Source of the DNA: a virus
DNA length: 64,000 nucleotides
Strand: one strand, 5' to 3'
IMG/VR virus record: IMGVR_UViG_3300016474_000281
Coordinates: 1 to 64,000 of that record
Below are positions 4,730 to 22,753 of the stretch, one piece after another; position 1 is the stretch's first letter, and the number at the start of each line of letters is the position of its first letter. The notes under the pieces were generated by a model, which worked only from the letters and a program-made list of their open reading frames with translations, searched no databases and was not told the origin of the DNA. The translations under genes and the position numbers were made by a program.

Positions 4730-4742
4730 AACCCAAAAAAAG

Positions 4743-5301: not shown

Positions 5302-5332
5302 GACTGGGGGCGTAATGTTCCCAGTCTTTTTT
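5302..5332 (+). terminator. rho-independent terminator
   Basis: gactggg (5302-5308) pairs with cccagtc (5320-5326), followed by TTTTTT. Confidence 0.8.
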
Positions 5333-5343: not shown

Positions 5344-5484
5344 ATGCGTATAAAGAGACTTAAACTGACTATTATAACCAACTTCACAGGTAAAGATATG
5401 AGGCGTGAAAACCTCCACTTCTTTACATCTAAGGGTGCAAATGAATCTGATGAAACTTTTAGTTCAATGTTTACATTATGCTGA
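5344..5484 (+). CDS. micro-ORF A1 (46 aa)
   Basis: pep MRIKRLKLTIITNFTGKDMRRENLHFFTSKGANESDETFSSMFTLC; 3p junction is a 7-nt overlap ATGCTGA. Confidence 0.55.
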   Translation: MRIKRLKLTIITNFTGKDMRRENLHFFTSKGANESDETFSSMFTLC

Positions 5485-5618
5485 TAAATACATACAGACT
5501 AAGTGTTATATCTATACTTACAAGTAGAGACGTTAGACATGAATTTCATTATTTCTTTGCTCGTAAGGCAATAAATGATTTTGACAAATTTATTAGTTCA
5601 ACATTTACAATGATATAA
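5478..5618 (+). CDS. micro-ORF A2 (46 aa), clear paralog of A1
   Basis: pep MLINTYRLSVISILTSRDVRHEFHYFFARKAINDFDKFISSTFTMI. Confidence 0.55.
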   Translation: MLINTYRLSVISILTSRDVRHEFHYFFARKAINDFDKFISSTFTMI

Positions 5619-5620
5619 TC

Positions 5621-5764
5621 GTGGAATTAGATACAAAACAAATACTAAATACTAATCCAGCTTATTATAGCAAGCTTGCAGTAAGTATGGAAACTTTGGC
5701 CAAATCTCACGATACATTCAATAATAAATACTACGCAATAGGAACAACTTTCACAATGGTATGA
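5621..5764 (+). CDS. micro-ORF A3 (47 aa, GTG start)
   Basis: pep VELDTKQILNTNPAYYSKLAVSMETLAKSHDTFNNKYYAIGTTFTMV; cgtggaatta resembles the usual tatggaacta junction; 3p junction ATGA. Confidence 0.4.
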   Translation: MELDTKQILNTNPAYYSKLAVSMETLAKSHDTFNNKYYAIGTTFTMV

Positions 5765-5871
5765 ACATAACTAAACCTACATACATGTATATGTTTGAGT
5801 ACAGGTTCAACAGTTTGAACAAGCTGAGATTTAATCACAAGTGGACAAGTGTATTGTTATGTTGTTACTAG
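5761..5871 (+). CDS. micro-ORF A4 (36 aa)
   Basis: pep MNITKPTYMYMFEYRFNSLNKLRFNHKWTSVLLCCY; 13-nt overlap with A5. Confidence 0.45.
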   Translation: MNITKPTYMYMFEYRFNSLNKLRFNHKWTSVLLCCY

Positions 5872-5984
5872 TTAAAGCTTATTCAGAACACGCTATAAAG
5901 AAAGAAGTAGTATTTACAAAGAGTTGGATACTGAAGAATCATTGGACACTTGATAACGTATCAATTATATTCACATGCGTATAG
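5859..5984 (+). CDS. micro-ORF A5 (41 aa)
   Basis: pep MLLLVKAYSEHAIKKEVVFTKSWILKNHWTLDNVSIIFTCV; 10-nt overlap with A6. Confidence 0.45.
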   Translation: MLLLVKAYSEHAIKKEVVFTKSWILKNHWTLDNVSIIFTCV

Positions 5985-6067
5985 TAATAAAAGTTTGTAA
6001 TTCAATATCTATTTGTACAGTAGTGGAGAAATACAAAGACCTATCAATTAGATTCATATGCAAATAA
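5975..6067 (+). CDS. micro-ORF A6 (30 aa)
   Basis: pep MRIVIKVCNSISICTVVEKYKDLSIRFICK; 10-nt overlap with A7. Confidence 0.4.
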   Translation: MRIVIKVCNSISICTVVEKYKDLSIRFICK

Positions 6068-6162
6068 CTACAGGTTTTGCAGCTTACTACGTAGTTAGTT
6101 CTATAACTATTCGTAGTACTTGGCAACCTAGGTGCATGTCAACTACGTTAATATGCGAGTAA
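6058..6162 (+). CDS. micro-ORF A7 (34 aa)
   Basis: pep MQITTGFAAYYVVSSITIRSTWQPRCMSTTLICE; 10-nt overlap with the RadC-like start. Confidence 0.4.
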   Translation: MQITTGFAAYYVVSSITIRSTWQPRCMSTTLICE

Positions 6163-9554: not shown

Positions 9555-9605
9555 CAAACTTGGTGTATATTTGTACAGATAATTGGTTTGCTAAATTTGT
9601 TTATA

Positions 9606-11755: not shown

Positions 11756-11781
11756 TTGATTCATGTTTATAGATTGATTTG

Positions 11782-11813
11782 AGGAGGCTGGGTTAGTACC
11801 TGGTCTCCTTTTT
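11782..11813 (+). terminator. rho-independent terminator
   Basis: aggaggctggg pairs with cctggtctcct (3 G-T wobbles), loop ttagta, then TTTTT. Confidence 0.7.
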
Positions 11814-11824: not shown

Positions 11825-11989
11825 ATGTTATTGAGTATTGAAAGTAAATACGGTATCAACAAAGAGTATTTTAACAACTTACTTGTTGTTGGAATGGGTT
11901 TGTACTCTGAAAAGTCAAGTTCAAAACGTGGCTTTTATTGGTTTGACTTGAAGCGTTTAGATTGTGGAACTACAACTGTTTTAATATGA
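11825..11989 (+). CDS. micro-ORF B1 (54 aa)
   Basis: pep MLLSIESKYGINKEYFNNLLVVGMGLYSEKSSSKRGFYWFDLKRLDCGTTTVLI; 3p junction ATGA. Confidence 0.5.
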   Translation: MLLSIESKYGINKEYFNNLLVVGMGLYSEKSSSKRGFYWFDLKRLDCGTTTVLI

Positions 11990-12252
11990 AACTTCTAAAG
12001 ATAAAGTTTAAAGGTGTTGGATGCAGAGATAATGTAGGTTCGTATTTAGAAAACAGACGTTTACCTTCTTATCTATACTGGTATAATAAAATTAGACAAC
12101 AGCTTTACAATGGTAATAATATGATACTAGAGACTACATATACTAAAGGTGAAACCAGTATTTTAAGTACCACCTATAGGAAACTTTGTGTACCAAACTG
12201 GCTGTTTGACCTTTCTGATTTACAGCTTAGTTTTATACCTATACTAATATGA
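11986..12252 (+). CDS. micro-ORF B2 (88 aa, looks like two fused units)
   Basis: pep MKLLKIKFKGVGCRDNVGSYLENRRLPSYLYWYNKIRQQLYNGNNMILETTYTKGETSILSTTYRKLCVPNWLFDLSDLQLSFIPILI; an internal aataatatgata junction is read in frame; 3p junction ATGA. Confidence 0.55.
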   Translation: MKLLKIKFKGVGCRDNVGSYLENRRLPSYLYWYNKIRQQLYNGNNMILETTYTKGETSILSTTYRKLCVPNWLFDLSDLQLSFIPILI

Positions 12253-12362
12253 TAGTTTCAATTAAATTCATAAAAGAATCAGATTTTACTGGATTAATGT
12301 TTCCTTTTGTAAAAGGTTGTGAAATTGATTCAGCTACTTTAATACTACACGTATGGAACTAG
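12249..12362 (+). CDS. micro-ORF B3 (37 aa)
   Basis: pep MIVSIKFIKESDFTGLMFPFVKGCEIDSATLILHVWN; 3p junction ATGGAACTAG. Confidence 0.5.
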   Translation: MIVSIKFIKESDFTGLMFPFVKGCEIDSATLILHVWN

Positions 12363-12484
12363 CAACTACAACATTAGTGTTTATGAGTTTATTTGGTGAA
12401 AGATATGTGTACAATCCACAATACTTTAGTGAGTTGTACATGAGAAAATTAGATCATGATTCTGTACATCTAACACTACACTGA
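12353..12484 (+). CDS. micro-ORF B4 (43 aa)
   Basis: pep MELATTTLVFMSLFGERYVYNPQYFSELYMRKLDHDSVHLTLH; 3p junction TGATG. Confidence 0.5.
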   Translation: MELATTTLVFMSLFGERYVYNPQYFSELYMRKLDHDSVHLTLH

Positions 12485-12588
12485 TGAAGATAAAAACCAC
12501 AGGAATACACTACAAGAAGTTTTACAAAGAATATTATTGGATCACAAACTCTAGTAAAGTGGGTAGTACATATTTAATTATACATTGA
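12484..12588 (+). CDS. micro-ORF B5 (34 aa)
   Basis: pep MKIKTTGIHYKKFYKEYYWITNSSKVGSTYLIIH; 3p junction TGATG. Confidence 0.5.
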   Translation: MKIKTTGIHYKKFYKEYYWITNSSKVGSTYLIIH

Positions 12589-12695
12589 TGGAAATCAAAA
12601 TAATATTTAAGCAATATCTTAGTGCTAAAGGGTTATTTTTCCCTAGTGTCAAGTATATATCTTCTAACGTAACTACATTATTTTACATAGTATGA
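12588..12695 (+). CDS. micro-ORF B6 (35 aa)
   Basis: pep MEIKIIFKQYLSAKGLFFPSVKYISSNVTTLFYIV; 3p junction ATGA. Confidence 0.5.
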   Translation: MEIKIIFKQYLSAKGLFFPSVKYISSNVTTLFYIV

Positions 12696-12802
12696 AAATC
12701 AAATGGTATCTTATGACTAGAATAGATATTAAAGTACATTCTACATACAGCAGTCTTACCCTAATGAATGATTCTTTAAGTACTGTAATGTTACTGATAT
12801 GA
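12692..12802 (+). CDS. micro-ORF B7 (36 aa), paralog of B12
   Basis: pep MKIKWYLMTRIDIKVHSTYSSLTLMNDSLSTVMLLI; 3p junction ATGA. Confidence 0.55.
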   Translation: MKIKWYLMTRIDIKVHSTYSSLTLMNDSLSTVMLLI

Positions 12803-12936
12803 AAGTAACTTTAAGACTAGTAGGAAGTTGTTATCTAAACAAAAAGTTTTACGTATGGTATTCAATAAAGCATTATGTTATGTGGAATACTATGAACAAA
12901 CAAATACACTGTTCAAATACATTTATGTTAATATGA
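12799..12936 (+). CDS. micro-ORF B8 (45 aa), paralog of B13
   Basis: pep MKVTLRLVGSCYLNKKFYVWYSIKHYVMWNTMNKQIHCSNTFMLI; 3p junction ATGA. Confidence 0.55.
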   Translation: MKVTLRLVGSCYLNKKFYVWYSIKHYVMWNTMNKQIHCSNTFMLI

Positions 12937-12962
12937 AAGTAGCTTTATTAGATGTGAGATGA
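12933..12962 (+). pseudogene. micro-ORF B9, 9-aa stump of a unit
   Basis: pep MKVALLDVR; normal ATGA junctions on both sides but the body is deleted. Confidence 0.4.
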
Positions 12963-13063
12963 AAATAAAAATTTCAGCAATACACGATAACAAGTTTTAT
13001 TATGAACATTCTTGGTTTATAGAAGGTTACAAAGGGTTTAGTGTACATTTAATTACAAACTGA
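12959..13063 (+). CDS. micro-ORF B10 (34 aa)
   Basis: pep MKIKISAIHDNKFYYEHSWFIEGYKGFSVHLITN; 3p junction TGATG. Confidence 0.5.
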   Translation: MKIKISAIHDNKFYYEHSWFIEGYKGFSVHLITN

Positions 13064-13179
13064 TGGAGTTAAAACTAACAGCAAAACACTATCATGTATC
13101 TGAAGATACGTGGAAGCTAGTAGATGTGTATTTTGGTTTAAAAAGTAAGTACATAGGCACTGAAATTTTACTAATATGA
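13063..13179 (+). CDS. micro-ORF B11 (38 aa)
   Basis: pep MELKLTAKHYHVSEDTWKLVDVYFGLKSKYIGTEILLI; 3p junction ATGA. Confidence 0.5.
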   Translation: MELKLTAKHYHVSEDTWKLVDVYFGLKSKYIGTEILLI

Positions 13180-13292
13180 AGATTACCTGGAAACTTATGA
13201 CCAGATTTGGTACTAAAGTACATTCTACATATAGCAATGTCAAGTTAATAGATGATAACATGAGTACTGCAATCTTATTGATATGGAAATAA
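13176..13292 (+). CDS. micro-ORF B12 (38 aa), paralog of B7
   Basis: pep MKITWKLMTRFGTKVHSTYSNVKLIDDNMSTAILLIWK; 3p junction ATGGAAATAA. Confidence 0.55.
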   Translation: MKITWKLMTRFGTKVHSTYSNVKLIDDNMSTAILLIWK

Positions 13293-13426
13293 CTTTAAAG
13301 ATAACTGGAGGTTGCTGTACAAACAAGAAGTACATTTTACTTCATTCAGCAAAATATTACGCTACTTGGCTTGGTAGAAAAGATAAACAGTTAGCTGATT
13401 GTTCATATATATTTACAATGATATGA
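13283..13426 (+). CDS. micro-ORF B13 (47 aa), paralog of B8
   Basis: pep MEITLKITGGCCTNKKYILLHSAKYYATWLGRKDKQLADCSYIFTMI; 3p junction ATGA. Confidence 0.55.
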   Translation: MEITLKITGGCCTNKKYILLHSAKYYATWLGRKDKQLADCSYIFTMI

Positions 13427-13584
13427 GACTACATAGAGAATACGGTTTTGAAGACATGGACATAGAGATACTTGTGTATGGAGGTTACTTTCATAACACT
13501 AAGCTTGGCATAGATCCGTATAAAATACTCAATGATTTTCGTAGACAGTATGAAACTCGTTCAACAATACTTACTTTAGTATGA
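13423..13584 (+). CDS. micro-ORF B14 (53 aa)
   Basis: pep MRLHREYGFEDMDIEILVYGGYFHNTKLGIDPYKILNDFRRQYETRSTILTLV; track ORF 13399-13584 trimmed to the ATG; 3p junction ATGA. Confidence 0.55.
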   Translation: MRLHREYGFEDMDIEILVYGGYFHNTKLGIDPYKILNDFRRQYETRSTILTLV

Positions 13585-13733
13585 GATTAGATAGATTATT
13601 AGGTGAAACTGATATCATCACTGCCAAAGGTAGTTATTTTAACATGCACTTCAGCAATGAAGCTAACTTAAGTTGGAGGTGTACACTTAGGCTTGCTTAT
13701 TTACTCAAATCTATAATGTTTACAATGATATGA
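13581..13733 (+). CDS. micro-ORF B15 (50 aa)
   Basis: pep MRLDRLLGETDIITAKGSYFNMHFSNEANLSWRCTLRLAYLLKSIMFTMI; 3p junction ATGA. Confidence 0.55.
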   Translation: MRLDRLLGETDIITAKGSYFNMHFSNEANLSWRCTLRLAYLLKSIMFTMI

Positions 13734-13882
13734 ATCTAAATGATTTTTTTGGTATATCTGGAGCTGGACATATTTCAAAAATGATTCAGATGAAAAGGTT
13801 TCCAACACTAATGATGCATCTTGAACTCAAGAACAGAATAGTAAAAGATTTAGGAGCTATAACTATACTAAAATGGAACTAA
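13730..13882 (+). CDS. micro-ORF B16 (50 aa)
   Basis: pep MNLNDFFGISGAGHISKMIQMKRFPTLMMHLELKNRIVKDLGAITILKWN; 3p junction ATGGAACTAA. Confidence 0.55.
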   Translation: MNLNDFFGISGAGHISKMIQMKRFPTLMMHLELKNRIVKDLGAITILKWN

Positions 13883-14016
13883 AAGTATTACGTAAGTCAG
13901 GAGCTGGATATTACTCAGAGCCTTTCAAAAAAGTTACTGAAATTGTATTTAAGAGTTATACTCCATACAGGTATAACGTAGCAAAAAATATAAGCATAAT
14001 AACTATACTGAGATGA
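13873..14016 (+). CDS. micro-ORF B17 (47 aa), tandem twin of B18
   Basis: pep MELKVLRKSGAGYYSEPFKKVTEIVFKSYTPYRYNVAKNISIITILR; 3p junction ATGA. Confidence 0.6.
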   Translation: MELKVLRKSGAGYYSEPFKKVTEIVFKSYTPYRYNVAKNISIITILR

Positions 14017-14162
14017 ACTTAAAAGTGTCACGTAAGTCAGGAGGTGGATACTTTACACAACCTTTTTTAGTAAGAAATGACATTGTGTTAATGAGTTATG
14101 TTTCATACAAGTTTAACGCAACAAAAGATACAAGCTTAATAACTATATTGATATGGAAGTAA
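14013..14162 (+). CDS. micro-ORF B18 (49 aa), tandem twin of B17
   Basis: pep MNLKVSRKSGGGYFTQPFLVRNDIVLMSYVSYKFNATKDTSLITILIWK; 3p junction ATGGAAGTAA. Confidence 0.6.
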   Translation: MNLKVSRKSGGGYFTQPFLVRNDIVLMSYVSYKFNATKDTSLITILIWK

Positions 14163-14278
14163 GAGTTAATAAAGTAGGTGGTGCTTACTACAGTTTAAAA
14201 GATAAACAAACTGATGTGTATTACTGCAGACATTTTCATTCAACACAAACTAATGGAACTAAATTAGTACTGCAATGA
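14153..14278 (+). CDS. micro-ORF B19 (41 aa)
   Basis: pep MEVRVNKVGGAYYSLKDKQTDVYYCRHFHSTQTNGTKLVLQ; 3p junction ATGA. Confidence 0.55.
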   Translation: MEVRVNKVGGAYYSLKDKQTDVYYCRHFHSTQTNGTKLVLQ

Positions 14279-14430
14279 AGGTAGTATCTAAGACATTTGT
14301 AAGTGGTCATTTTAACGAGCAGCTTAAAGATTTAGTTGGGAAGAATATTTTTATTCTCAGGTTCTTACCTTCAAAAGTAGATGGAGATATTATTAACTGT
14401 GTTACTAGTGTAAATTTTATTTCAATATGA
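14275..14430 (+). CDS. micro-ORF B20 (51 aa)
   Basis: pep MKVVSKTFVSGHFNEQLKDLVGKNIFILRFLPSKVDGDIINCVTSVNFISI; 3p junction ATGA. Confidence 0.55.
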   Translation: MKVVSKTFVSGHFNEQLKDLVGKNIFILRFLPSKVDGDIINCVTSVNFISI

Positions 14431-14537
14431 AATTAAAAAGACTTCCTATAACAAGTTACACTCACATAAGAATGGAACCCATATATTTTAGACAATTTAC
14501 TTCTAGCTTAGGAGGTGTTACAACAGTAGTGATATGA
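14427..14537 (+). CDS. micro-ORF B21 (36 aa)
   Basis: pep MKLKRLPITSYTHIRMEPIYFRQFTSSLGGVTTVVI; 3p junction ATGA. Confidence 0.5.
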   Translation: MKLKRLPITSYTHIRMEPIYFRQFTSSLGGVTTVVI

Positions 14538-14674
14538 GACTGTACGCATTAAATGTAGTTGGTTGTTATTGGAACAATAAAGGCGATAGTTTCACAATGT
14601 TAAAAAAAAAGCACTACCTTATTTATGTTTACGCAGGTAGCATAGTTGATTCAACAATATTAATATGCAATTAG
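14534..14674 (+). CDS. micro-ORF B22 (46 aa)
   Basis: pep MRLYALNVVGCYWNNKGDSFTMLKKKHYLIYVYAGSIVDSTILICN; 3p junction ATGCAATTAG. Confidence 0.55.
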   Translation: MRLYALNVVGCYWNNKGDSFTMLKKKHYLIYVYAGSIVDSTILICN

Positions 14675-14811
14675 ATCAGGTTGTATTACTTGGAGGAGAT
14701 GCTTGTGATAAATTTAGACATTTTGTTTCAAATTCAATATTGTCTGGATACTATCAAGACCCTGACTATAAACATAAACTTGACTCAATAATCTTAATGT
14801 TATGGAAATAA
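14665..14811 (+). CDS. micro-ORF B23 (48 aa)
   Basis: pep MQLDQVVLLGGDACDKFRHFVSNSILSGYYQDPDYKHKLDSIILMLWK; 3p junction ATGGAAATAA. Confidence 0.55.
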   Translation: MQLDQVVLLGGDACDKFRHFVSNSILSGYYQDPDYKHKLDSIILMLWK

Positions 14812-14957
14812 ATATAGTTAAAATGCTAGGTGGAGCTATATACAACGATAATACTCTTTTGTCAGATTCAAAGAGGAATACACATTCATCTTGGGATTTC
14901 ATATCTTTTGACACAGCTTATGATATACAGTCAACAATCTTGATGTTATGGAGTTAA
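14802..14957 (+). CDS. micro-ORF B24 (51 aa)
   Basis: pep MEINIVKMLGGAIYNDNTLLSDSKRNTHSSWDFISFDTAYDIQSTILMLWS; 3p junction ATGGAGTTAA. Confidence 0.55.
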   Translation: MEINIVKMLGGAIYNDNTLLSDSKRNTHSSWDFISFDTAYDIQSTILMLWS

Positions 14958-15091
14958 ATAGAATAGTGATTGTAGGTGGTAATATGTTTACCGAAAACAG
15001 TCTATATCAGTTTACTAAAGCTTTTCAATTCTATTCGTTACAAGTGAAACTTACTCCTCGTAGTTCAACAACATTCATACTATGGAAATAG
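14948..15091 (+). CDS. micro-ORF B25 (47 aa)
   Basis: pep MELNRIVIVGGNMFTENSLYQFTKAFQFYSLQVKLTPRSSTTFILWK; 3p junction ATGGAAATAG. Confidence 0.55.
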   Translation: MELNRIVIVGGNMFTENSLYQFTKAFQFYSLQVKLTPRSSTTFILWK

Positions 15092-15240
15092 ATAAAATCA
15101 TGATGACAGGTGGAGATATATATGAACGTTTTCCTTACATGTTTATTAAAATATATCCATTTTACTCAGTATTGTTTAATACAAACAAAACTGATTCAAC
15201 AACATTTATACTATGGGGCTGTTTAGAAAAATACAAATAA
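15082..15240 (+). CDS. micro-ORF B26 (52 aa)
   Basis: pep MEIDKIMMTGGDIYERFPYMFIKIYPFYSVLFNTNKTDSTTFILWGCLEKYK; 28-nt overlap with B27. Confidence 0.55.
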   Translation: MEIDKIMMTGGDIYERFPYMFIKIYPFYSVLFNTNKTDSTTFILWGCLEKYK

Positions 15241-15344
15241 GTGGTGGTTGTTTTAGAAATCATTTGTTTGGTTATGAACCTTTATGCGGGTGGGAATACA
15301 AAAGAATTGACCAAGATGAATCTATTATATTTTGTTTAACCTAA
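15213..15344 (+). CDS. micro-ORF B27 (43 aa), twin of B28
   Basis: pep MGLFRKIQISGGCFRNHLFGYEPLCGWEYKRIDQDESIIFCLT; 10-nt gap before B28. Confidence 0.55.
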   Translation: MGLFRKIQISGGCFRNHLFGYEPLCGWEYKRIDQDESIIFCLT

Positions 15345-15354
15345 TAAAACTATT

Positions 15355-15486
15355 ATGAATCTTTTTAAAAGAATAATCTATGGAGGTGGGCGTGGTAGTC
15401 ATTCAAAAAGTATAAACCTGGTTTTACATTTGTATAACTTCAATAAGGTTAAACCAGATGAATCAATTATAACTGTTTGTTTATGA
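15355..15486 (+). CDS. micro-ORF B28 (43 aa), twin of B27
   Basis: pep MNLFKRIIYGGGRGSHSKSINLVLHLYNFNKVKPDESIITVCL; 3p junction ATGA. Confidence 0.55.
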   Translation: MNLFKRIIYGGGRGSHSKSINLVLHLYNFNKVKPDESIITVCL

Positions 15487-15611
15487 AGATAGCAATGATG
15501 AAGAGAGGTTTATCTTTCTTTAATACAAGAACAAATCCAGCTTTTCATCCCTGGACTTACTCAGCTAAAATGACAAATGTACTTATTGGAACAAAACTTA
15601 TCTTGATATGA
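15483..15611 (+). CDS. micro-ORF B29 (42 aa)
   Basis: pep MKIAMMKRGLSFFNTRTNPAFHPWTYSAKMTNVLIGTKLILI; 3p junction ATGA. Confidence 0.5.
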   Translation: MKIAMMKRGLSFFNTRTNPAFHPWTYSAKMTNVLIGTKLILI

Positions 15612-15757
15612 AACTAAAAAGTAGAATAATTGGAGAAGGTTACGGCATGTCTAAAAGAGAAATAAGAGATAACAAAGGAAACTCTTATTACCACGCGATG
15701 AAGTTTAAAGATGGTTCTAAAGCAGCTTCAGTAAACATTATACTAACATGGAACTAG
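15608..15757 (+). CDS. micro-ORF B30 (49 aa)
   Basis: pep MKLKSRIIGEGYGMSKREIRDNKGNSYYHAMKFKDGSKAASVNIILTWN; 3p junction ATGGAACTAG. Confidence 0.55.
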   Translation: MKLKSRIIGEGYGMSKREIRDNKGNSYYHAMKFKDGSKAASVNIILTWN

Positions 15758-15888
15758 ATACAATAAGTAAAGGTTACAGTTTTAAATCACCTTTAGCAAA
15801 CATCACCTACATGACCTTAGTTAAAGATACTAAGGTCAAGTTTAGTACGTTGGCAACAAGTAGTATGTTGCTAATATTGACACGATGA
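15748..15888 (+). CDS. micro-ORF B31 (46 aa)
   Basis: pep MELDTISKGYSFKSPLANITYMTLVKDTKVKFSTLATSSMLLILTR; 3p junction ATGA. Confidence 0.55.
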   Translation: MELDTISKGYSFKSPLANITYMTLVKDTKVKFSTLATSSMLLILTR

Positions 15889-16019
15889 GAATTGGAAACA
15901 ACTTATTTGGAGGTAGTTATTATATGCCTAAGAATATAAAGATAGTTGCAGATTATCACGGTGTATTAAGACATACAGCTTCATCCCTTAGAAGTACAAC
16001 ACTTATCTTATGGAACTAA
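15885..16019 (+). CDS. micro-ORF B32 (44 aa)
   Basis: pep MRIGNNLFGGSYYMPKNIKIVADYHGVLRHTASSLRSTTLILWN; 3p junction ATGGAACTAA. Confidence 0.55.
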   Translation: MRIGNNLFGGSYYMPKNIKIVADYHGVLRHTASSLRSTTLILWN

Positions 16020-16156
16020 AAACAGATACGTTTGGTAGTTGCTATTTTACAGATGGACAGTGGCACAAAGACTTTATGTTAGACGCTAACTTTATCTCTA
16101 TTAGTGAAAGTGTTCAGACTCAAAGTAAAAGCGCAATACTAGTACTATGGAATTAA
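16010..16156 (+). CDS. micro-ORF B33 (48 aa)
   Basis: pep MELKTDTFGSCYFTDGQWHKDFMLDANFISISESVQTQSKSAILVLWN; 3p junction ATGGAATTAA. Confidence 0.6.
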   Translation: MELKTDTFGSCYFTDGQWHKDFMLDANFISISESVQTQSKSAILVLWN

Positions 16157-16305
16157 AGTTTGACATATCAGGAGGTAGTCACGCTACTACAGACTTAGTT
16201 AGTGTTCAAAAGAAATCTGTGTTTGACACAGACTTTAAAATTTTTAAAGCTAGGGAACTTCATGGACACAATCACATAAGTACAAATTTGATAGTATGGA
16301 ACTGA
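16147..16305 (+). CDS. micro-ORF B34 (52 aa)
   Basis: pep MELKFDISGGSHATTDLVSVQKKSVFDTDFKIFKARELHGHNHISTNLIVWN; 3p junction ATGGAACTGA. Confidence 0.6.
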   Translation: MELKFDISGGSHATTDLVSVQKKSVFDTDFKIFKARELHGHNHISTNLIVWN

Positions 16306-16445
16306 GAACTAACACACTAGGTAATTGCTACTGTACAAATAAGAATCACTATAAAGTGCCAATGGATAACACGACAAATTACGCTCCTATCAGAACATTC
16401 TTGATACTTAAAAATAGAGGTATAACACTAATACTATGGAACTAA
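16296..16445 (+). CDS. micro-ORF B35 (49 aa)
   Basis: pep MELRTNTLGNCYCTNKNHYKVPMDNTTNYAPIRTFLILKNRGITLILWN; 3p junction ATGGAACTAA. Confidence 0.6.
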   Translation: MELRTNTLGNCYCTNKNHYKVPMDNTTNYAPIRTFLILKNRGITLILWN

Positions 16446-16585
16446 CTGTTGATATATTTGGTAGTAGCTATGATATAGACTCACTTGAACATACAGTGTT
16501 TATAACAGAATTTAGTGTACTTATGCCTATATCAAGATGTTATGAAGTTAAAAATACAGGTGCAATCTTACTGTTATGGAACTAA
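16436..16585 (+). CDS. micro-ORF B36 (49 aa)
   Basis: pep MELTVDIFGSSYDIDSLEHTVFITEFSVLMPISRCYEVKNTGAILLLWN; 3p junction ATGGAACTAA. Confidence 0.6.
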   Translation: MELTVDIFGSSYDIDSLEHTVFITEFSVLMPISRCYEVKNTGAILLLWN

Positions 16586-16722
16586 AGTCTGATATATCAG
16601 GTGCTTCTTATGGAGGATCCTACTTTGTAGATAGGACAAGAATACAACTTAAACGATATGAATTTATATCTGCTGGAATTTGGAAAGGAAAAACTATATC
16701 AACACTATTTGTATGCAGTTAA
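16576..16722 (+). CDS. micro-ORF B37 (48 aa)
   Basis: pep MELKSDISGASYGGSYFVDRTRIQLKRYEFISAGIWKGKTISTLFVCS; 3p junction ATGCAGTTAA. Confidence 0.6.
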   Translation: MELKSDISGASYGGSYFVDRTRIQLKRYEFISAGIWKGKTISTLFVCS

Positions 16723-16856
16723 GAGTTAACTTCTTAGGAATATGCTACTCCAAATGTGAAGTAAGAGATAGAGATATTAAGTCACAACGTTGGGAGTTTG
16801 TAGAAATTAAATCTTGGAATCAAAAAAACATGTCAACGTTAATGTTATGTATTTAG
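16713..16856 (+). CDS. micro-ORF B38 (47 aa)
   Basis: pep MQLRVNFLGICYSKCEVRDRDIKSQRWEFVEIKSWNQKNMSTLMLCI; 3p junction ATGTATTTAG. Confidence 0.55.
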   Translation: MQLRVNFLGICYSKCEVRDRDIKSQRWEFVEIKSWNQKNMSTLMLCI

Positions 16857-16987
16857 ATTTTAAAATGATTGGAGCTGGGTATGAAACACATAACCAATGG
16901 TACAGGATTCAATCTGCTTTAATGGCATTTGGAATACACCGTGGATTTAACGATTTAGACGTAGGATTAAAAACAATACTAATATGA
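16847..16987 (+). CDS. micro-ORF B39 (46 aa)
   Basis: pep MYLDFKMIGAGYETHNQWYRIQSALMAFGIHRGFNDLDVGLKTILI; 3p junction ATGA. Confidence 0.55.
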   Translation: MYLDFKMIGAGYETHNQWYRIQSALMAFGIHRGFNDLDVGLKTILI

Positions 16988-17124
16988 AAATAGCATCAGA
17001 TTTAGCTGGAGGTTCTATATATAACACTAAAAGTATACTTAAAAGTGTATTTGTGCAACCAGCATTATACAGACAAAGAGAAAAAACCGATTCAACTAGA
17101 AGTAGTATAACTATACTAATATGA
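16984..17124 (+). CDS. micro-ORF B40 (46 aa)
   Basis: pep MKIASDLAGGSIYNTKSILKSVFVQPALYRQREKTDSTRSSITILI; 3p junction ATGA. Confidence 0.6.
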   Translation: MKIASDLAGGSIYNTKSILKSVFVQPALYRQREKTDSTRSSITILI

Positions 17125-17267
17125 AACTAAAAATAAATTATAGAGGCATTTCAATATTTCAAAAAGATACATATCTTGAATCTGCTAAGTCACAAAAAGG
17201 ACTGGCACAACAATATGTAAGCTTTTTTGTAAATAAAGTATTAAGTACAACAACATTACTAATATGA
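17121..17267 (+). CDS. micro-ORF B41 (48 aa)
   Basis: pep MKLKINYRGISIFQKDTYLESAKSQKGLAQQYVSFFVNKVLSTTTLLI; 3p junction ATGA. Confidence 0.55.
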   Translation: MKLKINYRGISIFQKDTYLESAKSQKGLAQQYVSFFVNKVLSTTTLLI

Positions 17268-17413
17268 AGTTACAATCAGATATTGTTGGTGGATCGTATG
17301 TACAGAATGAAGATTGTTTTAAACTTCATCTTATAGGTGTAGAGTATTCTGATACGTATACTTTTCTCAGCTATGTAGATAACAATGTAGGTTTAATATC
17401 ATTACTAGTATGA
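17264..17413 (+). CDS. micro-ORF B42 (49 aa)
   Basis: pep MKLQSDIVGGSYVQNEDCFKLHLIGVEYSDTYTFLSYVDNNVGLISLLV; 3p junction ATGA. Confidence 0.6.
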   Translation: MKLQSDIVGGSYVQNEDCFKLHLIGVEYSDTYTFLSYVDNNVGLISLLV

Positions 17414-17553
17414 AATTAAGATTAAATGGAACATTAACTTCTCCTTATATGGGAGCAAGCTGTTATACTGGAATCAATCATAAGAGACATAGTTCTTTAA
17501 AGCTGTGGGCACGTCTACCCAGGACTTGTGGAGCTTCAATTGTGTTGATATGA
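17410..17553 (+). CDS. micro-ORF B43 (47 aa)
   Basis: pep MKLRLNGTLTSPYMGASCYTGINHKRHSSLKLWARLPRTCGASIVLI; 3p junction ATGA. Confidence 0.55.
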   Translation: MKLRLNGTLTSPYMGASCYTGINHKRHSSLKLWARLPRTCGASIVLI

Positions 17554-17681
17554 AGTTGATAGAAAACTTAAACATATATCACTGTTCTTTAGACAAAGAA
17601 AGACAACTATGCCAATTCAAGTATAAACACCATTATGCTGTCATAAATGAATACATAAGTTGTTTAAACATACTGATATGA
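17550..17681 (+). CDS. micro-ORF B44 (43 aa)
   Basis: pep MKLIENLNIYHCSLDKERQLCQFKYKHHYAVINEYISCLNILI; 3p junction ATGA. Confidence 0.55.
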   Translation: MKLIENLNIYHCSLDKERQLCQFKYKHHYAVINEYISCLNILI

Positions 17682-17806
17682 AACTGAGTTATGAATGTTT
17701 TAAGAGAAGAGGCATATACTTTAAAGGATACTTGACATCACCTAAACATACTATTTTCATTCAAGTCAAGTATTGGGACGTAGGTATGTTAAACATATTG
17801 TCATAA
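17678..17806 (+). CDS. micro-ORF B45 (42 aa)
   Basis: pep MKLSYECFKRRGIYFKGYLTSPKHTIFIQVKYWDVGMLNILS; the 3p junction is ATAA because the next unit has lost its ATG. Confidence 0.5.
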   Translation: MKLSYECFKRRGIYFKGYLTSPKHTIFIQVKYWDVGMLNILS

Positions 17807-17928
17807 GATTGCATTACTTTATATTGTTTAGAGGATCAAGTTACAGTTCTATAAAAAAAGGTGTATTTGTAAATACGTCTCTTCGTAACAGAAACAAAAC
17901 TAAATCAATAATTACAGCACTTCTATGA
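17803..17928 (+). pseudogene. micro-ORF B46: intact 41-codon unit whose start codon is ATA (TTG two codons later)
   Basis: pep (I)RLHYFILFRGSSYSSIKKGVFVNTSLRNRNKTKSIITALL; tcATAAgat sits where other units have tcATGAaa; 3p junction ATGA. Confidence 0.4.
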
Positions 17929-18068
17929 ACATAATGTGTAAAATAAGAATGACTGGAGGAGACTATTCAACAGGACACTTTGATAGATTTATATATCAGA
18001 ATAAGTGTTACGAACATTACTTGGATCGTAGGTTTATTGAAACAGCTTTACAGCTTATTGTTATATGA
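17925..18068 (+). CDS. micro-ORF B47 (47 aa)
   Basis: pep MNIMCKIRMTGGDYSTGHFDRFIYQNKCYEHYLDRRFIETALQLIVI; 3p junction ATGA. Confidence 0.55.
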   Translation: MNIMCKIRMTGGDYSTGHFDRFIYQNKCYEHYLDRRFIETALQLIVI

Positions 18069-18112
18069 AACTTAATTCGTTATACACTATGAGACTTAAT
18101 CCGTTGTACACT
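18065..18112 (+). repeat. 2 x 24-bp tandem repeat (21/24 identical)
   Basis: atgaaacttaattcgttatacact (18065-18088) and atgagacttaatccgttgtacact (18089-18112). Confidence 0.9.
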
Positions 18113-18208
18113 ACAATTGTTTGTATAGGTATGCATAGGACATTAGCTTATTACCAGCCAATTACAAGATTAAGTTATGAAGATTCAATTATACTTGTAA
18201 CAATATGA
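18065..18208 (+). CDS. micro-ORF B48 (47 aa) with an internal 24-bp tandem duplication of its own start region
   Basis: pep MKLNSLYTMRLNPLYTTIVCIGMHRTLAYYQPITRLSYEDSIILVTI; 3p junction ATGA. Confidence 0.55.
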   Translation: MKLNSLYTMRLNPLYTTIVCIGMHRTLAYYQPITRLSYEDSIILVTI

Positions 18209-18351
18209 ATCTATCCTGGAACGATAACAACTGGCCTTTTACTATAATGGTTAGAGGAGGTAACTTTAAGCGATGTGCACACATGTACACTACTGGTATA
18301 TATGTAACTTACTCTTCAAAACATTACTCAGCTATACTAGTGACAACATGA
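18205..18351 (+). CDS. micro-ORF B49 (48 aa)
   Basis: pep MNLSWNDNNWPFTIMVRGGNFKRCAHMYTTGIYVTYSSKHYSAILVTT; 3p junction ATGA. Confidence 0.55.
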   Translation: MNLSWNDNNWPFTIMVRGGNFKRCAHMYTTGIYVTYSSKHYSAILVTT

Positions 18352-18485
18352 TACTAAATACATTTGTACAATTGAGAGGTACTTGTAACTGCCTGAGAAG
18401 AAAGACAAAAGATGGAGCTATTAGGAGAGGTGTATGGTTTAGCGCGCAAGTAAAATCTCACGGTTTACTACTGGTTTTAATTTAA
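18348..18485 (+). CDS. micro-ORF B50 (45 aa)
   Basis: pep MILNTFVQLRGTCNCLRRKTKDGAIRRGVWFSAQVKSHGLLLVLI; track ORF 18273-18485 trimmed to the ATG; 11-nt gap follows. Confidence 0.55.
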   Translation: MILNTFVQLRGTCNCLRRKTKDGAIRRGVWFSAQVKSHGLLLVLI

Positions 18486-18496
18486 ACAAACATAAG

Positions 18497-18643
18497 ATGA
18501 AATTAACTCAAGACAGTTTGTTGTTGCTATCTAAAGGTGGCCACTACTTAGGTAAGGAAAGTATTTTGGATCATGAAATATGTTATCTTTCATTCTTTCG
18601 TACAAAATACATTCACAAATCAATAACAACTATTTTAATATGA
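18497..18643 (+). CDS. micro-ORF B51 (48 aa)
   Basis: pep MKLTQDSLLLLSKGGHYLGKESILDHEICYLSFFRTKYIHKSITTILI; 3p junction ATGA. Confidence 0.6.
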   Translation: MKLTQDSLLLLSKGGHYLGKESILDHEICYLSFFRTKYIHKSITTILI

Positions 18644-18783
18644 AACTAGTGGAAAGTAGGAAGATAGGAATTTGTTTTAGATCCCGTCCTTTTGTAGCAG
18701 ATAGTGTGTCTGTATTTACAGGGTTTAACAACTTTACATTTCTTTTAGAAAATACATTAGGAACTTATTTAATACTGATATGA
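18640..18783 (+). CDS. micro-ORF B52 (47 aa)
   Basis: pep MKLVESRKIGICFRSRPFVADSVSVFTGFNNFTFLLENTLGTYLILI; track ORF 18580-18783 trimmed to the ATG; 3p junction ATGA. Confidence 0.55.
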   Translation: MKLVESRKIGICFRSRPFVADSVSVFTGFNNFTFLLENTLGTYLILI

Positions 18784-18908
18784 ATTTACACAGGTATCGT
18801 ATAGCTGGAATATCGTATAGACAGAAGTATAACATAGGGTTTATACCTTTTTTTGATAGCCTTAACAAAAGAGATGTTGATGAATCAATAACATTTATAC
18901 TGATATGA
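18780..18908 (+). CDS. micro-ORF B53 (42 aa)
   Basis: pep MNLHRYRIAGISYRQKYNIGFIPFFDSLNKRDVDESITFILI; 3p junction ATGA. Confidence 0.55.
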   Translation: MNLHRYRIAGISYRQKYNIGFIPFFDSLNKRDVDESITFILI

Positions 18909-19048
18909 ATTTAACTATAAAACTGAAACATTATCCGTTTTATCTTAAACAAGATAAGATGTATCAAGCTGATGTGGCTTCTGAAAAGTTAATTTTTAAA
19001 GTGACAGCACAGCATCATTCATACAGTGTGAAAGTGATTCTTGCTTAA
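18905..19048 (+). CDS. micro-ORF B54 (47 aa)
   Basis: pep MNLTIKLKHYPFYLKQDKMYQADVASEKLIFKVTAQHHSYSVKVILA; 16-nt gap follows. Confidence 0.5.
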   Translation: MNLTIKLKHYPFYLKQDKMYQADVASEKLIFKVTAQHHSYSVKVILA

Positions 19049-19064
19049 CACAAACAATACAGTT

Positions 19065-19202
19065 ATGCCGTTGTTGTTTCAAAGAATAGGGTTATCCTAC
19101 ATGAGTTTAAACCACTATGAAATAATTACTAATATGAAGTTGCGAGCTGTTGTTTGTAAAGCAGGTAACTTTAGCTCAAAAATGATATTGACATGGAACT
19201 AG
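19065..19202 (+). CDS. micro-ORF B55 (45 aa, two short units fused in frame)
   Basis: pep MPLLFQRIGLSYMSLNHYEIITNMKLRAVVCKAGNFSSKMILTWN; an internal attactaatatgaag junction is read through; 3p junction ATGGAACTAG. Confidence 0.45.
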   Translation: MPLLFQRIGLSYMSLNHYEIITNMKLRAVVCKAGNFSSKMILTWN

Positions 19203-19336
19203 CTATAGACTTTATAGGAGCTACACATTCTCAAAGTGAATTTCATGTAAAGATTTACATGAACCCCGTACAGTTTTACAGTTTTTTTATATTTGAAAAA
19301 GATGAACTTAGGTCTGCAATATTTAATTTGATGTAA
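19193..19336 (+). CDS. micro-ORF B56 (47 aa), last unit of array B
   Basis: pep MELAIDFIGATHSQSEFHVKIYMNPVQFYSFFIFEKDELRSAIFNLM. Confidence 0.5.
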   Translation: MELAIDFIGATHSQSEFHVKIYMNPVQFYSFFIFEKDELRSAIFNLM

Positions 19337-19343: not shown

Positions 19344-19374
19344 TTTGCAACATTGACTTAAATAGTTATCTTTG
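19344..19374 (+). promoter_or_regulatory. Bacteroidota-type promoter (TTTG-N19-TAtcTTTG) 4 nt upstream of an ATG
   Basis: TTTG at 19344-19347 and TATCTTTG at 19367-19374 with a 19-nt spacer; ATG at 19379 implies a leaderless or near-leaderless mRNA. Confidence 0.5.
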
Positions 19375-19833: not shown

Positions 19834-19907
19834 AACAGAGTAGCTTAAATGGTAGAGCACAAGACTCATAATCTTGATGGATGCAGGTTCAAATCCTGTC
19901 TTTGTTA
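19834..19907 (+). tRNA. tRNA with anticodon CAT (elongator Met or lysidine-dependent Ile2); no encoded CCA
   Basis: Hand-folded cloverleaf: acceptor aacagag/ctttgtt, D-arm gctt-aaatggta-gagc, anticodon arm caaga-ctCATaa-tcttg, T-arm gcagg-ttcaaat-cctgt. The anticodon stem lacks the three G-C pairs of initiator tRNA. Ends are +/- 2 nt. Confidence 0.75.
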
Positions 19908-19919
19908 CTAATTTAAACT

Positions 19920-21030: not shown

Positions 21031-21350
21031 GTGAAGAATATCTTAACGCTTTACAAGAGTGTAAGGATCATACTGTATTAGTTGAAGCTGCAATACGATT
21101 AGAGTCGTTGATAGATAGAACTGGATATAACTCTATGCAGGAATACTATAAAGAACAATTGAACATCTTGAATAAAAGAATTAAAGAACTTACCACTACT
21201 AACTATAAAGTAGGAGACAGGTTGTTTGACACTAAGTACAAACGTTATGTGAAAGTTATAGCTTGTGAAGGTAACGTATATACAGTGCAAAATGATAGAA
21301 AAAATATACAAGTTATCGAAGGTAAGTACTTGACAAAGCGAGGTAGTTAA
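21027..21350 (+). CDS. hypothetical protein (107 aa)
   Basis: ATGA-coupled ORF. Confidence 0.6.
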   Translation: MSEEYLNALQECKDHTVLVEAAIRLESLIDRTGYNSMQEYYKEQLNILNKRIKELTTTNYKVGDRLFDTKYKRYVKVIACEGNVYTVQNDRKNIQVIEGKYLTKRGS

Positions 21351-21384
21351 CTTATCTTTGTATTGCTTAGTTTCTTAACCTGTT

Positions 21385-21414
21385 GAGGGCTTCTGTAACA
21401 AGAAGCTCTTTTTT
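21385..21414 (+). terminator. rho-independent terminator
   Basis: gagggcttct pairs with agaagctctt (with wobbles), loop gtaaca, then TTTTTT. Confidence 0.7.
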
Positions 21415-21602: not shown

Positions 21603-21749
21603 ATGAAATTCACATTTAAAATGGCTGGTATAGCTGCGGTAACTGAAGTTTATTTTGTAAAAAATTATCACAACAAAGTACTTTTTACAACGGCTATACC
21701 TTGTAAAGTAAGAACTAGAAGTTGTGGTAATAAATTATTACTAGCGTGA
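21603..21749 (+). CDS. micro-ORF C1 (48 aa), twin of C2
   Basis: pep MKFTFKMAGIAAVTEVYFVKNYHNKVLFTTAIPCKVRTRSCGNKLLLA; the 3p junction is GTGA because the next start is GTG. Confidence 0.5.
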   Translation: MKFTFKMAGIAAVTEVYFVKNYHNKVLFTTAIPCKVRTRSCGNKLLLA

Positions 21750-21901
21750 AAATAACGTTAAAGATTAAATTAACTGGGGCAGGTGCTTTAACTGCAGTTT
21801 ATTACATAAAGAGTTATCAAAGTATAATAGTTTTTGAATCTGCTCTAAGCAATAATGTAAAATGTTCTTATTGGAGTAGTAAATTCTTACTAATATGCTA
21901 A
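21746..21901 (+). CDS. micro-ORF C2 (51 aa, GTG start)
   Basis: pep VKITLKIKLTGAGALTAVYYIKSYQSIIVFESALSNNVKCSYWSSKFLLIC; 7-nt overlap with C3. Confidence 0.4.
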   Translation: MKITLKIKLTGAGALTAVYYIKSYQSIIVFESALSNNVKCSYWSSKFLLIC

Positions 21902-22011
21902 TGATTTTCAATGCTGCTGCTTTAACTAATCATACTAAACTAGCTAATTACTTTCGTTTAAAAGCTAAACATGGAGGTAAGCTGGGTAGTTGTAAATTTA
22001 TACTAATATGA
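21895..22011 (+). CDS. micro-ORF C3 (38 aa)
   Basis: pep MLMIFNAAALTNHTKLANYFRLKAKHGGKLGSCKFILI; 3p junction ATGA. Confidence 0.5.
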   Translation: MLMIFNAAALTNHTKLANYFRLKAKHGGKLGSCKFILI

Positions 22012-22157
22012 ACATACCTATAAAAATGTCAGGTGCATCTTACATTAGTAATAAGATCACAACAAATTTAGAAAGGTCAAAACAAAGAGTATTAACAAAA
22101 AGCACCTTTCTACATGTTCACACAAGTAATGTTGGCAGTTTATTTTTATTGACATGA
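22008..22157 (+). CDS. micro-ORF C4 (49 aa), twin of C5
   Basis: pep MNIPIKMSGASYISNKITTNLERSKQRVLTKSTFLHVHTSNVGSLFLLT; 3p junction ATGA. Confidence 0.55.
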   Translation: MNIPIKMSGASYISNKITTNLERSKQRVLTKSTFLHVHTSNVGSLFLLT

Positions 22158-22300
22158 ACATACTCGTACACGTATTAGGTGCATCTCATATCAGCTACAG
22201 GTCTACCTTAGATACAGAAAGGTTAGGGTCAGGTAGACAAGGGTTTTGCGGTTTACATACTCGTGCAAATAATTGTAGTTTAATACTTATTTTGACATGA
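22154..22300 (+). CDS. micro-ORF C5 (48 aa), twin of C4
   Basis: pep MNILVHVLGASHISYRSTLDTERLGSGRQGFCGLHTRANNCSLILILT; 3p junction ATGA. Confidence 0.55.
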   Translation: MNILVHVLGASHISYRSTLDTERLGSGRQGFCGLHTRANNCSLILILT

Positions 22301-22461
22301 AACTAAAACTAAATGTCACAAGTATATCTTGTTGCAGTTGCATAGGTGCAGCTAAAAACTATAAACGTGTAACATGTTTTTTATCTAGCAAGGTTTCTTC
22401 ACCTGTATTAGTACAAAATGGTTTAATTCACGGTAGTATATTTGTATTAGCATGGAACTAA
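22297..22461 (+). CDS. micro-ORF C6 (54 aa)
   Basis: pep MKLKLNVTSISCCSCIGAAKNYKRVTCFLSSKVSSPVLVQNGLIHGSIFVLAWN; 3p junction ATGGAACTAA. Confidence 0.55.
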   Translation: MKLKLNVTSISCCSCIGAAKNYKRVTCFLSSKVSSPVLVQNGLIHGSIFVLAWN

Positions 22462-22622
22462 TGAGAATAGGGTATAGTGGTAATGTTGTTTTCCCCTGGG
22501 GAGGTAGTTGTCTATCAACTTTAAAGATAGGTTTTTCACAATACCCTATATCTAAAAGTAGCGGATATGCTATGCACGTGTTTAAAACACCACTGATAAG
22601 TACTTACTTAGTATTGATATGA
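22452..22622 (+). CDS. micro-ORF C7 (56 aa)
   Basis: pep MELMRIGYSGNVVFPWGGSCLSTLKIGFSQYPISKSSGYAMHVFKTPLISTYLVLI; 3p junction ATGA. Confidence 0.55.
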   Translation: MELMRIGYSGNVVFPWGGSCLSTLKIGFSQYPISKSSGYAMHVFKTPLISTYLVLI

Positions 22623-22753
22623 ACATATATACAATTGGTTTATATAAAGGTATGGTCTTTAAGAATACGCACAAAGACACTTTAAAGTGCTACCTACCTA
22701 GAGACATACTGTTTAAAACAACAGATTTAACATCATATTTTTTAATCACTTAA
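22619..22753 (+). CDS. micro-ORF C8 (44 aa), last unit of array C
   Basis: pep MNIYTIGLYKGMVFKNTHKDTLKCYLPRDILFKTTDLTSYFLIT. Confidence 0.5.
   Translation: MNIYTIGLYKGMVFKNTHKDTLKCYLPRDILFKTTDLTSYFLIT

Follow-up and report, generated by a model that had tools for sequence, protein, structure and literature searches.

In a 64,000-nucleotide stretch of viral DNA (the window; positions 1-64,000 of the complete 102,932-bp IMG/VR record IMGVR_UViG_3300016474_000281), a 7.5-kb part that looks gene-free under standard annotation, apart from a few odd open reading frames (ORFs), is filled by 56 consecutive micro-ORFs on the plus strand. Judged by its avoidance of stop codons, its codon usage, an excess of differences at third codon positions and a ratio of nonsynonymous to synonymous substitution rates (dN/dS, or omega) below 1, this array (array B; Table 1) is protein-coding, and is neither an RNA element nor a DNA repeat. 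The reading that we prefer, with a probability of about 0.55, is that array B and two smaller arrays (A and C) would form a polycistronic block of real genes of about 47 residues each, which belong to one old, phage-specific family, are translationally coupled and fast-evolving, and whose products may act on host factors. A sequence-only reading of the same DNA had taken the units for genuine genes, and the four kinds of evidence named above bear it out on this point.

Tiling and coding status of array B

The array consists of 55 ORFs of 34-88 aa (mostly 42-53) and a 9-aa remnant, which together cover 99.2% of its length. The head-to-tail tiling is interrupted by only three gaps, of exactly the 10, 11 and 16 nt that had been read from the letters alone, after positions 15344, 18485 and 19048. 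At all remaining junctions, consecutive ORFs overlap by 1, 4 (ATGA) or 10 nt (ATGGAAnTAA). Each ORF is in frame -1 with respect to its predecessor, so that the frame index runs 1, 0, 2, 1, 0, 2 and so on along the array.

That the open frames exceed what chance allows, as had been claimed, is seen when the possible readings of the same nucleotides are compared. Following the rotating frame of the units, there is no stop among 2205 interior codons, while the other two plus-strand frames contain 207 and 247 stops, and the minus-strand frames 120-200. ORFs that start with ATG and have at least 30 aa cover 98% of the plus strand of array B and 13% of its minus strand; in 300 Markov-1 simulations, the coverage by such ORFs has a mean of 14% and a maximum of 30%. 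The in-frame codon usage of the array correlates with that of the long genes of the phage with r = 0.75, and the off-frame values are 0.27-0.46. When the frame of the array is shifted, it correlates only with equally shifted frames of the long genes.

A Logan contig from a related strain (L002) serves as reference for a comparison of strains. The flanks of the array are 95-97% identical between contig and window, and the array itself 70-91%. For 50 orthologous pairs of units, the pooled Nei-Gojobori estimate is dS = 0.205 and dN = 0.087, i.e., an omega of 0.42 (p = 2e-18 versus neutrality), to be compared with dS = 0.091, dN = 0.007 and omega = 0.08 for ten flanking genes. The variable core of the units, taken alone, has an omega of 0.43. 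Because transitions dominate the differences between the strains, the estimate was also conditioned on mutation class: there are then 181 nonsynonymous differences where 231 are expected, which corresponds to an omega-like ratio of 0.52 (p = 7e-9). Differences at codon positions one, two and three number 88, 81 and 160, and every insertion or deletion either has a length divisible by three or is compensated by another one a few bases away. Neutral divergence with broken frames, which the sequence-only reading had set against its own proposal, is therefore not what is found. On this comparison, the units are under purifying selection of weak-to-moderate strength, and about 50 of them are retained as one-to-one syntenic orthologs, although amino-acid substitutions accumulate in them about 12 times as fast as in the flanking genes.

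Consider next the alternative that the functional product is not protein but a non-coding RNA or a DNA repeat, e.g., iterons, binding sites about 14 helical turns apart or a long early RNA, and that the ORFs are incidental. The junctions between units are regularly spaced and have a conserved nucleotide core, as this alternative would have it. There is also a precedent in a comparable part of the genome of the crAss-like phage phi14:2, where two long early "intergenic" regions are transcribed above most genes from the earliest time point and have been termed long non-coding RNAs (bioRxiv 10.1101/2020.03.07.982082). Like array B, they are kilobase stretches of the rightward early arm that annotation leaves empty. 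When these regions are checked for ORF tiling, however, none is found, and they are therefore analogues of the array in position only. Stop avoidance in a rotating frame, codon usage and third-position excess are all incompatible with a non-coding element. Rfam gives a transfer RNA (tRNA) nearby as its sole match and none in the array, junction-centred windows fold no better than their shuffled versions (mean minimum-free-energy z-score 0.11), and Tandem Repeats Finder reports one two-copy repeat of unit length and nothing else of that kind. A non-protein product, which had been named beforehand as a way for the coding interpretation to fail, is thus hardly tenable.

The array changes not only by substitution but also by turnover of whole units, through block duplication, in-frame fusion, loss of a start codon, and gain and loss between strains. 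The array of the related strain is 8.6 kb long and has about 65 units with 99.5% ORF coverage, compared with the 55 ORFs and the remnant in the window. In unit B2, two units are fused in frame: its N-terminal part resembles the unit at 4526-4669 of the related contig, and its C-terminal part the unit at 5068-5199; the four units that lie between these two counterparts (4666-5071) are absent from the window. The 9-aa remnant has kept an ATGA junction at both ends. In unit B45, which has no counterpart in the related strain, the start codon has become ATA (junction ATAA) while the frame is still open, and this unit is probably decaying. Units B5-B8 are the best paralogs of units B9-B12, with an offset of four and 38-58% identity, and diversification by duplication, as proposed from the sequence, is visible both here and in the unit content of the two strains. 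Across the array, the median identity between paralogs is 21%, with 30-58% for the best pairs. Such a low median, together with the block duplication, points to an old family that is maintained as many distinct genes, with birth and death of units still ongoing.

Synonymous divergence in the array (0.205) is about twice that of the flanks (0.091), and the divergence of units is uneven, ranging from no differences at all to 59% identity. The raised and uneven divergence suggests that the array has recombined with diverged alleles. In other metagenomes, contigs assembled from short reads break off within the array, and two sequencing runs labelled RNA-Seq, which are probably DNA, cover the array region thinly.

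Junction grammar and protein family

The junctions obey a common grammar with the consensus A-12 A-11 ... T ... ATG(A/G)AAnTA(A/G). When the base at +3 is A, the upstream ORF stops at the TGA within ATGA, and 20 of 32 such junctions have another in-frame stop at +7. When the base at +3 is G, the upstream frame reads TGG-AAn-TAA, by which "W-N/K" is added to the upstream product and residue 2 of the next product is changed from K to E. A run of this second type, with "ME.." starts and "..LW[NK]" ends, occupies one part of the array (Table 1). The "LW[NK]" ending is a by-product, because it arises from the A-to-G exchange at junction base +3.

Junction information is maximal at second codon positions (T at -10, -7, -4 and -1, which gives hydrophobic residues), while first and third positions vary. 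The start context is rich in A, with frequencies of 0.89 for A-12, 0.72 for A-11, 0.58 for A-14 and 0.66 for A-6, and there is a purine at -3. In Flavobacterium johnsoniae, an A-rich start context promotes initiation that is independent of a Shine-Dalgarno sequence (Baez et al. 2019, PMC6847099). The start context of the units agrees with this pattern and resembles that of the long genes of the phage itself. With two exceptions, the ATA of unit B45 and one GTG in array C, the units all start with an ATG of their own.

Since the frame moves by exactly -1 at every junction, unit length is regular and neighbouring ends are conserved, it may be asked if the array encodes one giant repeat protein, in which a -1 shift or a re-reading of the overlap at each junction yields a polyprotein of about 2,500 residues built from 47-residue repeats. 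There is, however, no slippery heptamer in the junction consensus, the zero frame ends in a stop and often in two, and three of the junctions are gaps of 10-16 nt. Individual ATG starts in a context of the Bacteroidia type are present at nearly every unit, and in a distant relative of this phage (G001, described below), junctions of this type join units to ordinary genes. The giant protein is for these reasons extremely unlikely.

The products share the architecture M-[KE]-[LIV], a hydrophobic residue and then G-x-x-[YF] around positions 8-12, about 25 residues of variable core, and the C-terminal motif [ST]-x-x-L-[ILV]-L. They are high in I, L, S, T, Y and F, low in A, E and P, and net basic. 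The terminal motifs described in the sequence-only reading stand, in the form M-x-[LIV]...G-x-x-[YFH] at the N-terminus, with M1 in every unit and G9 conserved to at least 90%, and [ST]-x-x-L-x-L at the C-terminus, but "W-N/K" as a protein motif in its own right does not, being the junction by-product just described. The junction nucleotides do not explain G9 or the aromatic residue near position 12. The core had also been described as rich in W and C. This does not hold, since W amounts to 1.6% compared with 1.7% in the long genes, and C to 1.7% compared with 1.1%, so that neither is clearly enriched.

Profile searches of Pfam, PHROGs and the PDB with the units give nothing consistent, and the ESM Atlas has no usable match. 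As large protein sets return only the phage's own lineage, the statement that the units belong to no described family is upheld, and in full-text searches of the literature no account of such arrays came up. Two more specific identifications were tried and rejected. Blades of a WD40-type beta-propeller, brought to mind by "..ILLW[NK]", "G-x" and a size suited to four strands, have no Pfam or PDB profile match even at E = 10, and the W comes from the ATGG variant of the junction. Targets of a diversity-generating retroelement would require a reverse transcriptase and adenine-specific variation; PF00078 is absent from the genome, and the strain differences are mostly transitions, in both directions. 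A sliding-clamp-binding segment and a degron were considered as further candidate readings of the hydrophobic C-terminus.

Short paralogous ORFs in such number, conserved at both ends and variable in between, could also be an array of precursors for ribosomally synthesised and post-translationally modified peptides (RiPPs) or bacteriocins, where the N-terminus up to G-G/A/S is a short leader of the double-glycine type and the variable core is the product. The unit start "MELKxDIxGG" looks like the end of such a leader, and an FGE-sulfatase-like gene, conserved in G001, lies directly upstream of array B. When the motif is inspected more closely, the likeness fades: position 10, after G9, varies (G, A, S, N, C, I, L, E and others) and is not confined to G/A/S, the hydrophobic positions are one residue off the ELxxIxGG leader consensus, the "leader" has just ten residues, and the C-terminus is conserved as well. 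The complete 102.9-kb genome lacks the radical-SAM (PF04055), YcaO (PF02624) and C39-peptidase (PF03412) families in searches where the controls worked, and in G001 the units are scattered among replication genes. The absence of these enzymes and of a reverse transcriptase therefore leaves both the RiPP-like and the retroelement readings without their defining partners, and precursors of this kind are very unlikely.

Relatives and genome setting

The complete virus record ends in direct terminal repeats. Its rightward arm (about 1-35.7 kb) has small genes together with those for dCMP deaminase, ThyX, DNA polymerase, a DEAD-type helicase and a DnaB-like helicase, and its leftward arm has giant ORFs of 1116-2542 aa, so that replication and structural arms oppose each other as in the crAss layout. 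Pfam matches the crassvirus cargo-protein domain PF25725 (crAss_CARG1) in this phage and PF25176 (DUF7831) in the C-terminal part of a 2391-aa protein. By these two matches and the layout, the genome is placed with the Crassvirales, or crAss-like phages. DNA of the phage is present in freshwater and wastewater metagenomes from 11 studies, with strains in roughly 18 metagenomes, and its host is probably a member of the Bacteroidota. Among the phages in INPHARED there is no close relative: a near-identity search with the array is unmatched, and a distant search with the downstream flank of array B retrieves only the tRNA. No relatives were found when IMG/VR was searched with the FGE-like and ThyX proteins.

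A profile of the family was compared with 1.84 billion protein representatives (eight matches, all in the same lineage) and with 5.8 billion clusters (six matches, same lineage only), and a profile of the G001 units matched only itself; with profiles of 45 residues and databases of this size, these numbers say little about distribution. ThyX homologs at about 50% identity (L007-L012) are not accompanied by units. The search with aligned units that had been suggested from the sequence thus stays, in protein sets, within one lineage, and G001 was reached instead by a DNA pattern for the junction grammar. As this pattern requires "TATGAAAYT", the "MKL" start shared by its matches is partly given by construction.

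Scanning IMG/VR with the junction pattern gave two further records. The first, G001 (IMGVR_UViG_3300009868_000002; loci L047, L050 and L183-L187), is 103.6 kb long with a GC fraction of 0.45, and has 31 collinear proteins in common with this phage, at 21-78% identity. It contains about 45-50 coupled micro-ORFs of 41-56 aa with the form "M[KRI][LI]...G.C[YF]...S.RLIL", which lie in groups of 2-9 between the genes for DNA polymerase, a helicase, a 173-aa protein and a DnaB-like helicase. In the window, the same replication genes are adjacent or parted by other ORFs. The sequence-only reading had envisaged a library operon; the polycistronic chain of paralogs holds, and the notion of a single dedicated operon is weakened by the dispersal of the G001 units between replication genes. 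An hhalign comparison of array units with G001 units scores 18.2 (P = 0.0017), its reversed control 2.5, and 7 of 535 column permutations reach 18.2; a plain hidden Markov model search is not significant. Homology between the two sets, as far as such alignments carry, is probable but not proven.

The second record, G002 (IMGVR_UViG_3300020046_003652; loci L041, L046 and L188-L191; 75 kb, GC 0.30), has no detectable protein in common with this phage. It carries about 60 ATGA-coupled micro-ORFs of the form "MK[LI]...L" among replication genes, and ORFs of the form "MIL...VVL" at one genome end. Nine "MKL...KKL" ORFs form a chain on L089, a metagenome contig of 2 kb. Convergence and horizontal spread are both candidate explanations for these chains. 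A second scan of IMG/VR yielded 17 stretches, with ORF chains only in the G001 and G002 records, and a metagenome scan yielded at least 120, among which, in the 80 screened, a chain of at least four occurs only in L089. Many of the metagenome matches (L076, L077, L098-L100, L123, L129 and others; several from human gut) have a strict period of about 330 nt and no micro-ORF chains. These contigs contain a different tandem repeat, unrelated to the array.

Within the window, arrays A, B and C, with 71 units, take up about 14.8% of the sequence, close to the 15% estimated earlier, and the two smaller arrays are confirmed. Referred to the complete genome, the arrays (about 70 genes) occupy about 9%. 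A G+C-rich hairpin with a T-run lies 8-16 nt upstream of each array (Table 1). The hairpin before array B looks like a terminator or a 5'-leader element; that before array C may be part of a leader, given the sigma70-like site upstream of it, and all three are candidates for terminators, attenuators or 5' stabilisers. At its other end, array B is bounded by a promoter-like element, as the sequence-only reading had it, and with stop/start overlaps and no terminator inside the array, its description as a polycistronic chain is supported. A second match to the pattern TTTG-N17-22-TAnnTTTG lies at 9543-9599, just before a gene start at 9588. Over the window as a whole, the Bacteroidota promoter pattern shows no enrichment, with 4 matches where 3.3 are expected. 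The 60-aa ORF at the head of array C is well kept in L002 and in L003, in contrast to the units after it.

Table 1. Positions of arrays, individual units and bounding features in the window
Feature	Position	Strand	Remarks
Array A	5344..6162	+	about 7 units, grammar as in array B; hairpin and T-run (5300-5327) before, RadC-like gene after
RadC-like JAB-domain protein	6132-6590	+	directly 3' of array A; annotated GTG start overlaps last unit
FGE-sulfatase-like protein (PF03781), 318 aa	10799-11755		directly upstream of array B; G001 homolog at 31% identity
G+C-rich hairpin, then T-run	11781..11810	+	13 pairs; 14 nt before first ATG of array B
Array B	11825..19336	+	56 units
Unit B2 (88 aa)	11986..12252	+	in-frame fusion
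Block duplication	12484..13426	+	B5-B8 and B9-B12
Remnant unit MKVALLDVR (9 aa)	12933..12962	+	
Run of 10-nt-overlap junctions (ATGGAAnTAA)	16010..16856	+	
Unit B45	17803..17928	+	ATA for ATG
Promoter-like TTTG-N19-TAtcTTTG	19344..19374	+	fits Bacteroidota -33/-7 consensus; 4 nt before 79-aa gene (start 19379)
Sigma70-like site TTGACA-17-TATCTT	21330-21358		upstream of array C hairpin
Hairpin and T-run	21385-21410		precedes array C
Hydrophobic ORF, 60 aa	21419-21601		heads array C; probably membrane
Array C	21603..22753	+	8 units, one with GTG start at 21746

The rightward arm opens with a 235-aa pentapeptide-repeat protein (412-1119; PF00805, E = 1e-57), which is a candidate anti-restriction protein because its family includes DNA mimics. 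Together with the RadC-like protein it makes up the candidate anti-restriction neighbours on the strand of the arrays, next to genes of nucleotide metabolism and replication. The tRNA at 19834-19908 has the anticodon CAT and lacks initiator features (bases 1 and 72 pair, and the three G:C pairs are missing from its anticodon stem). It could be an elongator Met tRNA or an Ile2 tRNA that reads AUA. A tRNA-Arg(TCT) lies at 97984-98058 of the genome, and both tRNAs would suit an AT-rich codon usage (ATA, AGA).

Interpretation of the arrays

According to the preferred reading of the arrays as real, coupled genes, one long transcript of the rightward early/replication arm would carry the units, which would be translated in sequence by termination and reinitiation, so that their products would be made in roughly equal amounts. 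The products would then be a diversified set of small proteins acting on host factors, in anti-defence or takeover, where the conserved terminal segments may serve all of them as scaffold or recognition element, while the variable core would confer specificity. The family itself evolves by birth and death at conserved junctions. Host interaction or anti-defence is the most likely function if one goes by position in the arm, by the pentapeptide-repeat and RadC-like neighbours and by an evolution that resembles an arms race. The units may be "early", to judge by their place in the rightward non-structural arm.

Several observations weigh against this reading. A dN/dS of 0.4-0.5 means weak constraint, and selection that does no more than remove toxic or aggregating peptides might produce it. 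AlphaFold2, run twice on alignments of the family (41 and 70 rows), gives pLDDT values (its per-residue confidence) of 54.8 and 53.3, no confident fold and hardly any secondary structure; the idea of a scaffold is therefore without structural support, and the beta-rich products proposed in the sequence-only reading are not borne out. Between the hairpin and the first ATG there is no obvious promoter in arrays A and B, nor room for one. The homology with G001 relies on short terminal motifs, the signal of which is partly forced by common junction nucleotides. Nothing ties the units to a defence system or host target.

As the main rival, the units may be seen as translated filler, or as "junction cassettes" that propagate themselves: their peptides would have no function of their own, and units bounded by the conserved stop/start junction would duplicate, or insert at any ATGA gene junction, in such a way that coupling is kept. 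Translation would then protect the long early transcript, e.g., from Rho-type polarity, and the array may also be a spacer or timer before the replication genes. Cassettes of this kind would account for the fact that the G001 units, in their groups of 2-9, sit precisely where one conserved replication gene is joined to the next, for the ease with which units are gained, lost, fused or deprived of their start codon between close strains, for the lack of a predicted fold, and for a terminal "protein motif" that is partly dictated by junction nucleotides (the +7 stop and the A-rich start context). They would also explain why the unrelated G002 and contig L089 bear analogous chains with other sequences. 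Peptides without function should, on the other hand, have a dN/dS near 1, and the 0.43-0.52 of the variable core is far from this value. Nor is it expected that some 50 units persist as one-to-one syntenic orthologs, or that paralogs at 21% identity still keep G9 and the aromatic residue near position 12, beyond what the junction constrains, and a pure spacer could be one long ORF. Filler is on balance possible, but we consider it unlikely.

When the arrays are taken as genes, they can be compared with known systems. Tandem multigene families, or "genomic accordions", of large DNA viruses are exemplified by the MGF families of African swine fever virus and the amplification of K3L in poxviruses. 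As in these, tandem paralogs lie in a non-structural part of the genome, copy number varies by strain and the proteins change much faster than those of neighbouring genes; the array differs in that units have about 47 codons, stand 56 in a row and are stop/start-coupled, and in that the paralogs are ancient (21%) rather than recent amplifications. Lytic phages have clusters of small early genes for takeover and anti-defence, such as the host-takeover module of SPO1, the hyperplastic regions of T4 and anti-CRISPR loci. Small, unmatched, co-oriented ORFs next to candidate anti-restriction genes are common to these clusters and the array, but theirs are unrelated genes of varied size, whereas the array is one family with fixed termini and length over 7.5 kb. 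Prochlorosin precursor genes form a RiPP library with, again, dozens of short paralogous ORFs in one genome that combine conserved and hypervariable segments. In the array, by contrast, no modifying enzyme or leader peptidase is found, both ends are conserved and not only a long leader, and the units are strictly tandem and coupled. Finally, Zeta-group crAss-like genomes have regions that lack recognisable proteins and contain short ORFs, which are of mixed polarity, vary from one close genome to another and have been linked to recoding (Yutin et al. 2021, PMC7886860). The array differs from these in being on one strand, in the standard code, paralogous and under selection. It may be grouped with viral tandem multigene families or with small early phage genes, and is unusual in the size and number of its units, in its coupling grammar and in its recurrence.

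A more far-reaching picture, which we put forward tentatively and regard as doubtful, is that units of about 45 residues represent an unrecognised, ancient superfamily of microproteins. Coupled cassettes would multiply at, or move between, stop/start junctions, fill 5-10% of the genomes in several lineages of environmental phages that probably infect Bacteroidota, and act as combinatorial binders against host defence or takeover targets. Hidden by gene callers and by length cut-offs, comparable arrays may be common in phage "dark matter."

Where standard annotation shows nothing, or no more than a few odd ORFs, this genome has about 70 microprotein genes, and the same applies to G001 and thus to at least one distant relative. 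Provided that the peptides are made, they would be among the largest paralogous gene families known in phage, and a natural, fast-evolving library of 47-residue proteins. The grammar of chained ATGA-type junctions with a spacing of 40-55 codons can be used to search for further arrays. The arrays also provide a testable case for three questions: how large the micro-coding share of viral "non-coding" sequence is, how translation proceeds through dozens of coupled cistrons without Shine-Dalgarno sequences in Bacteroidota, and how phages may use diversified small proteins.

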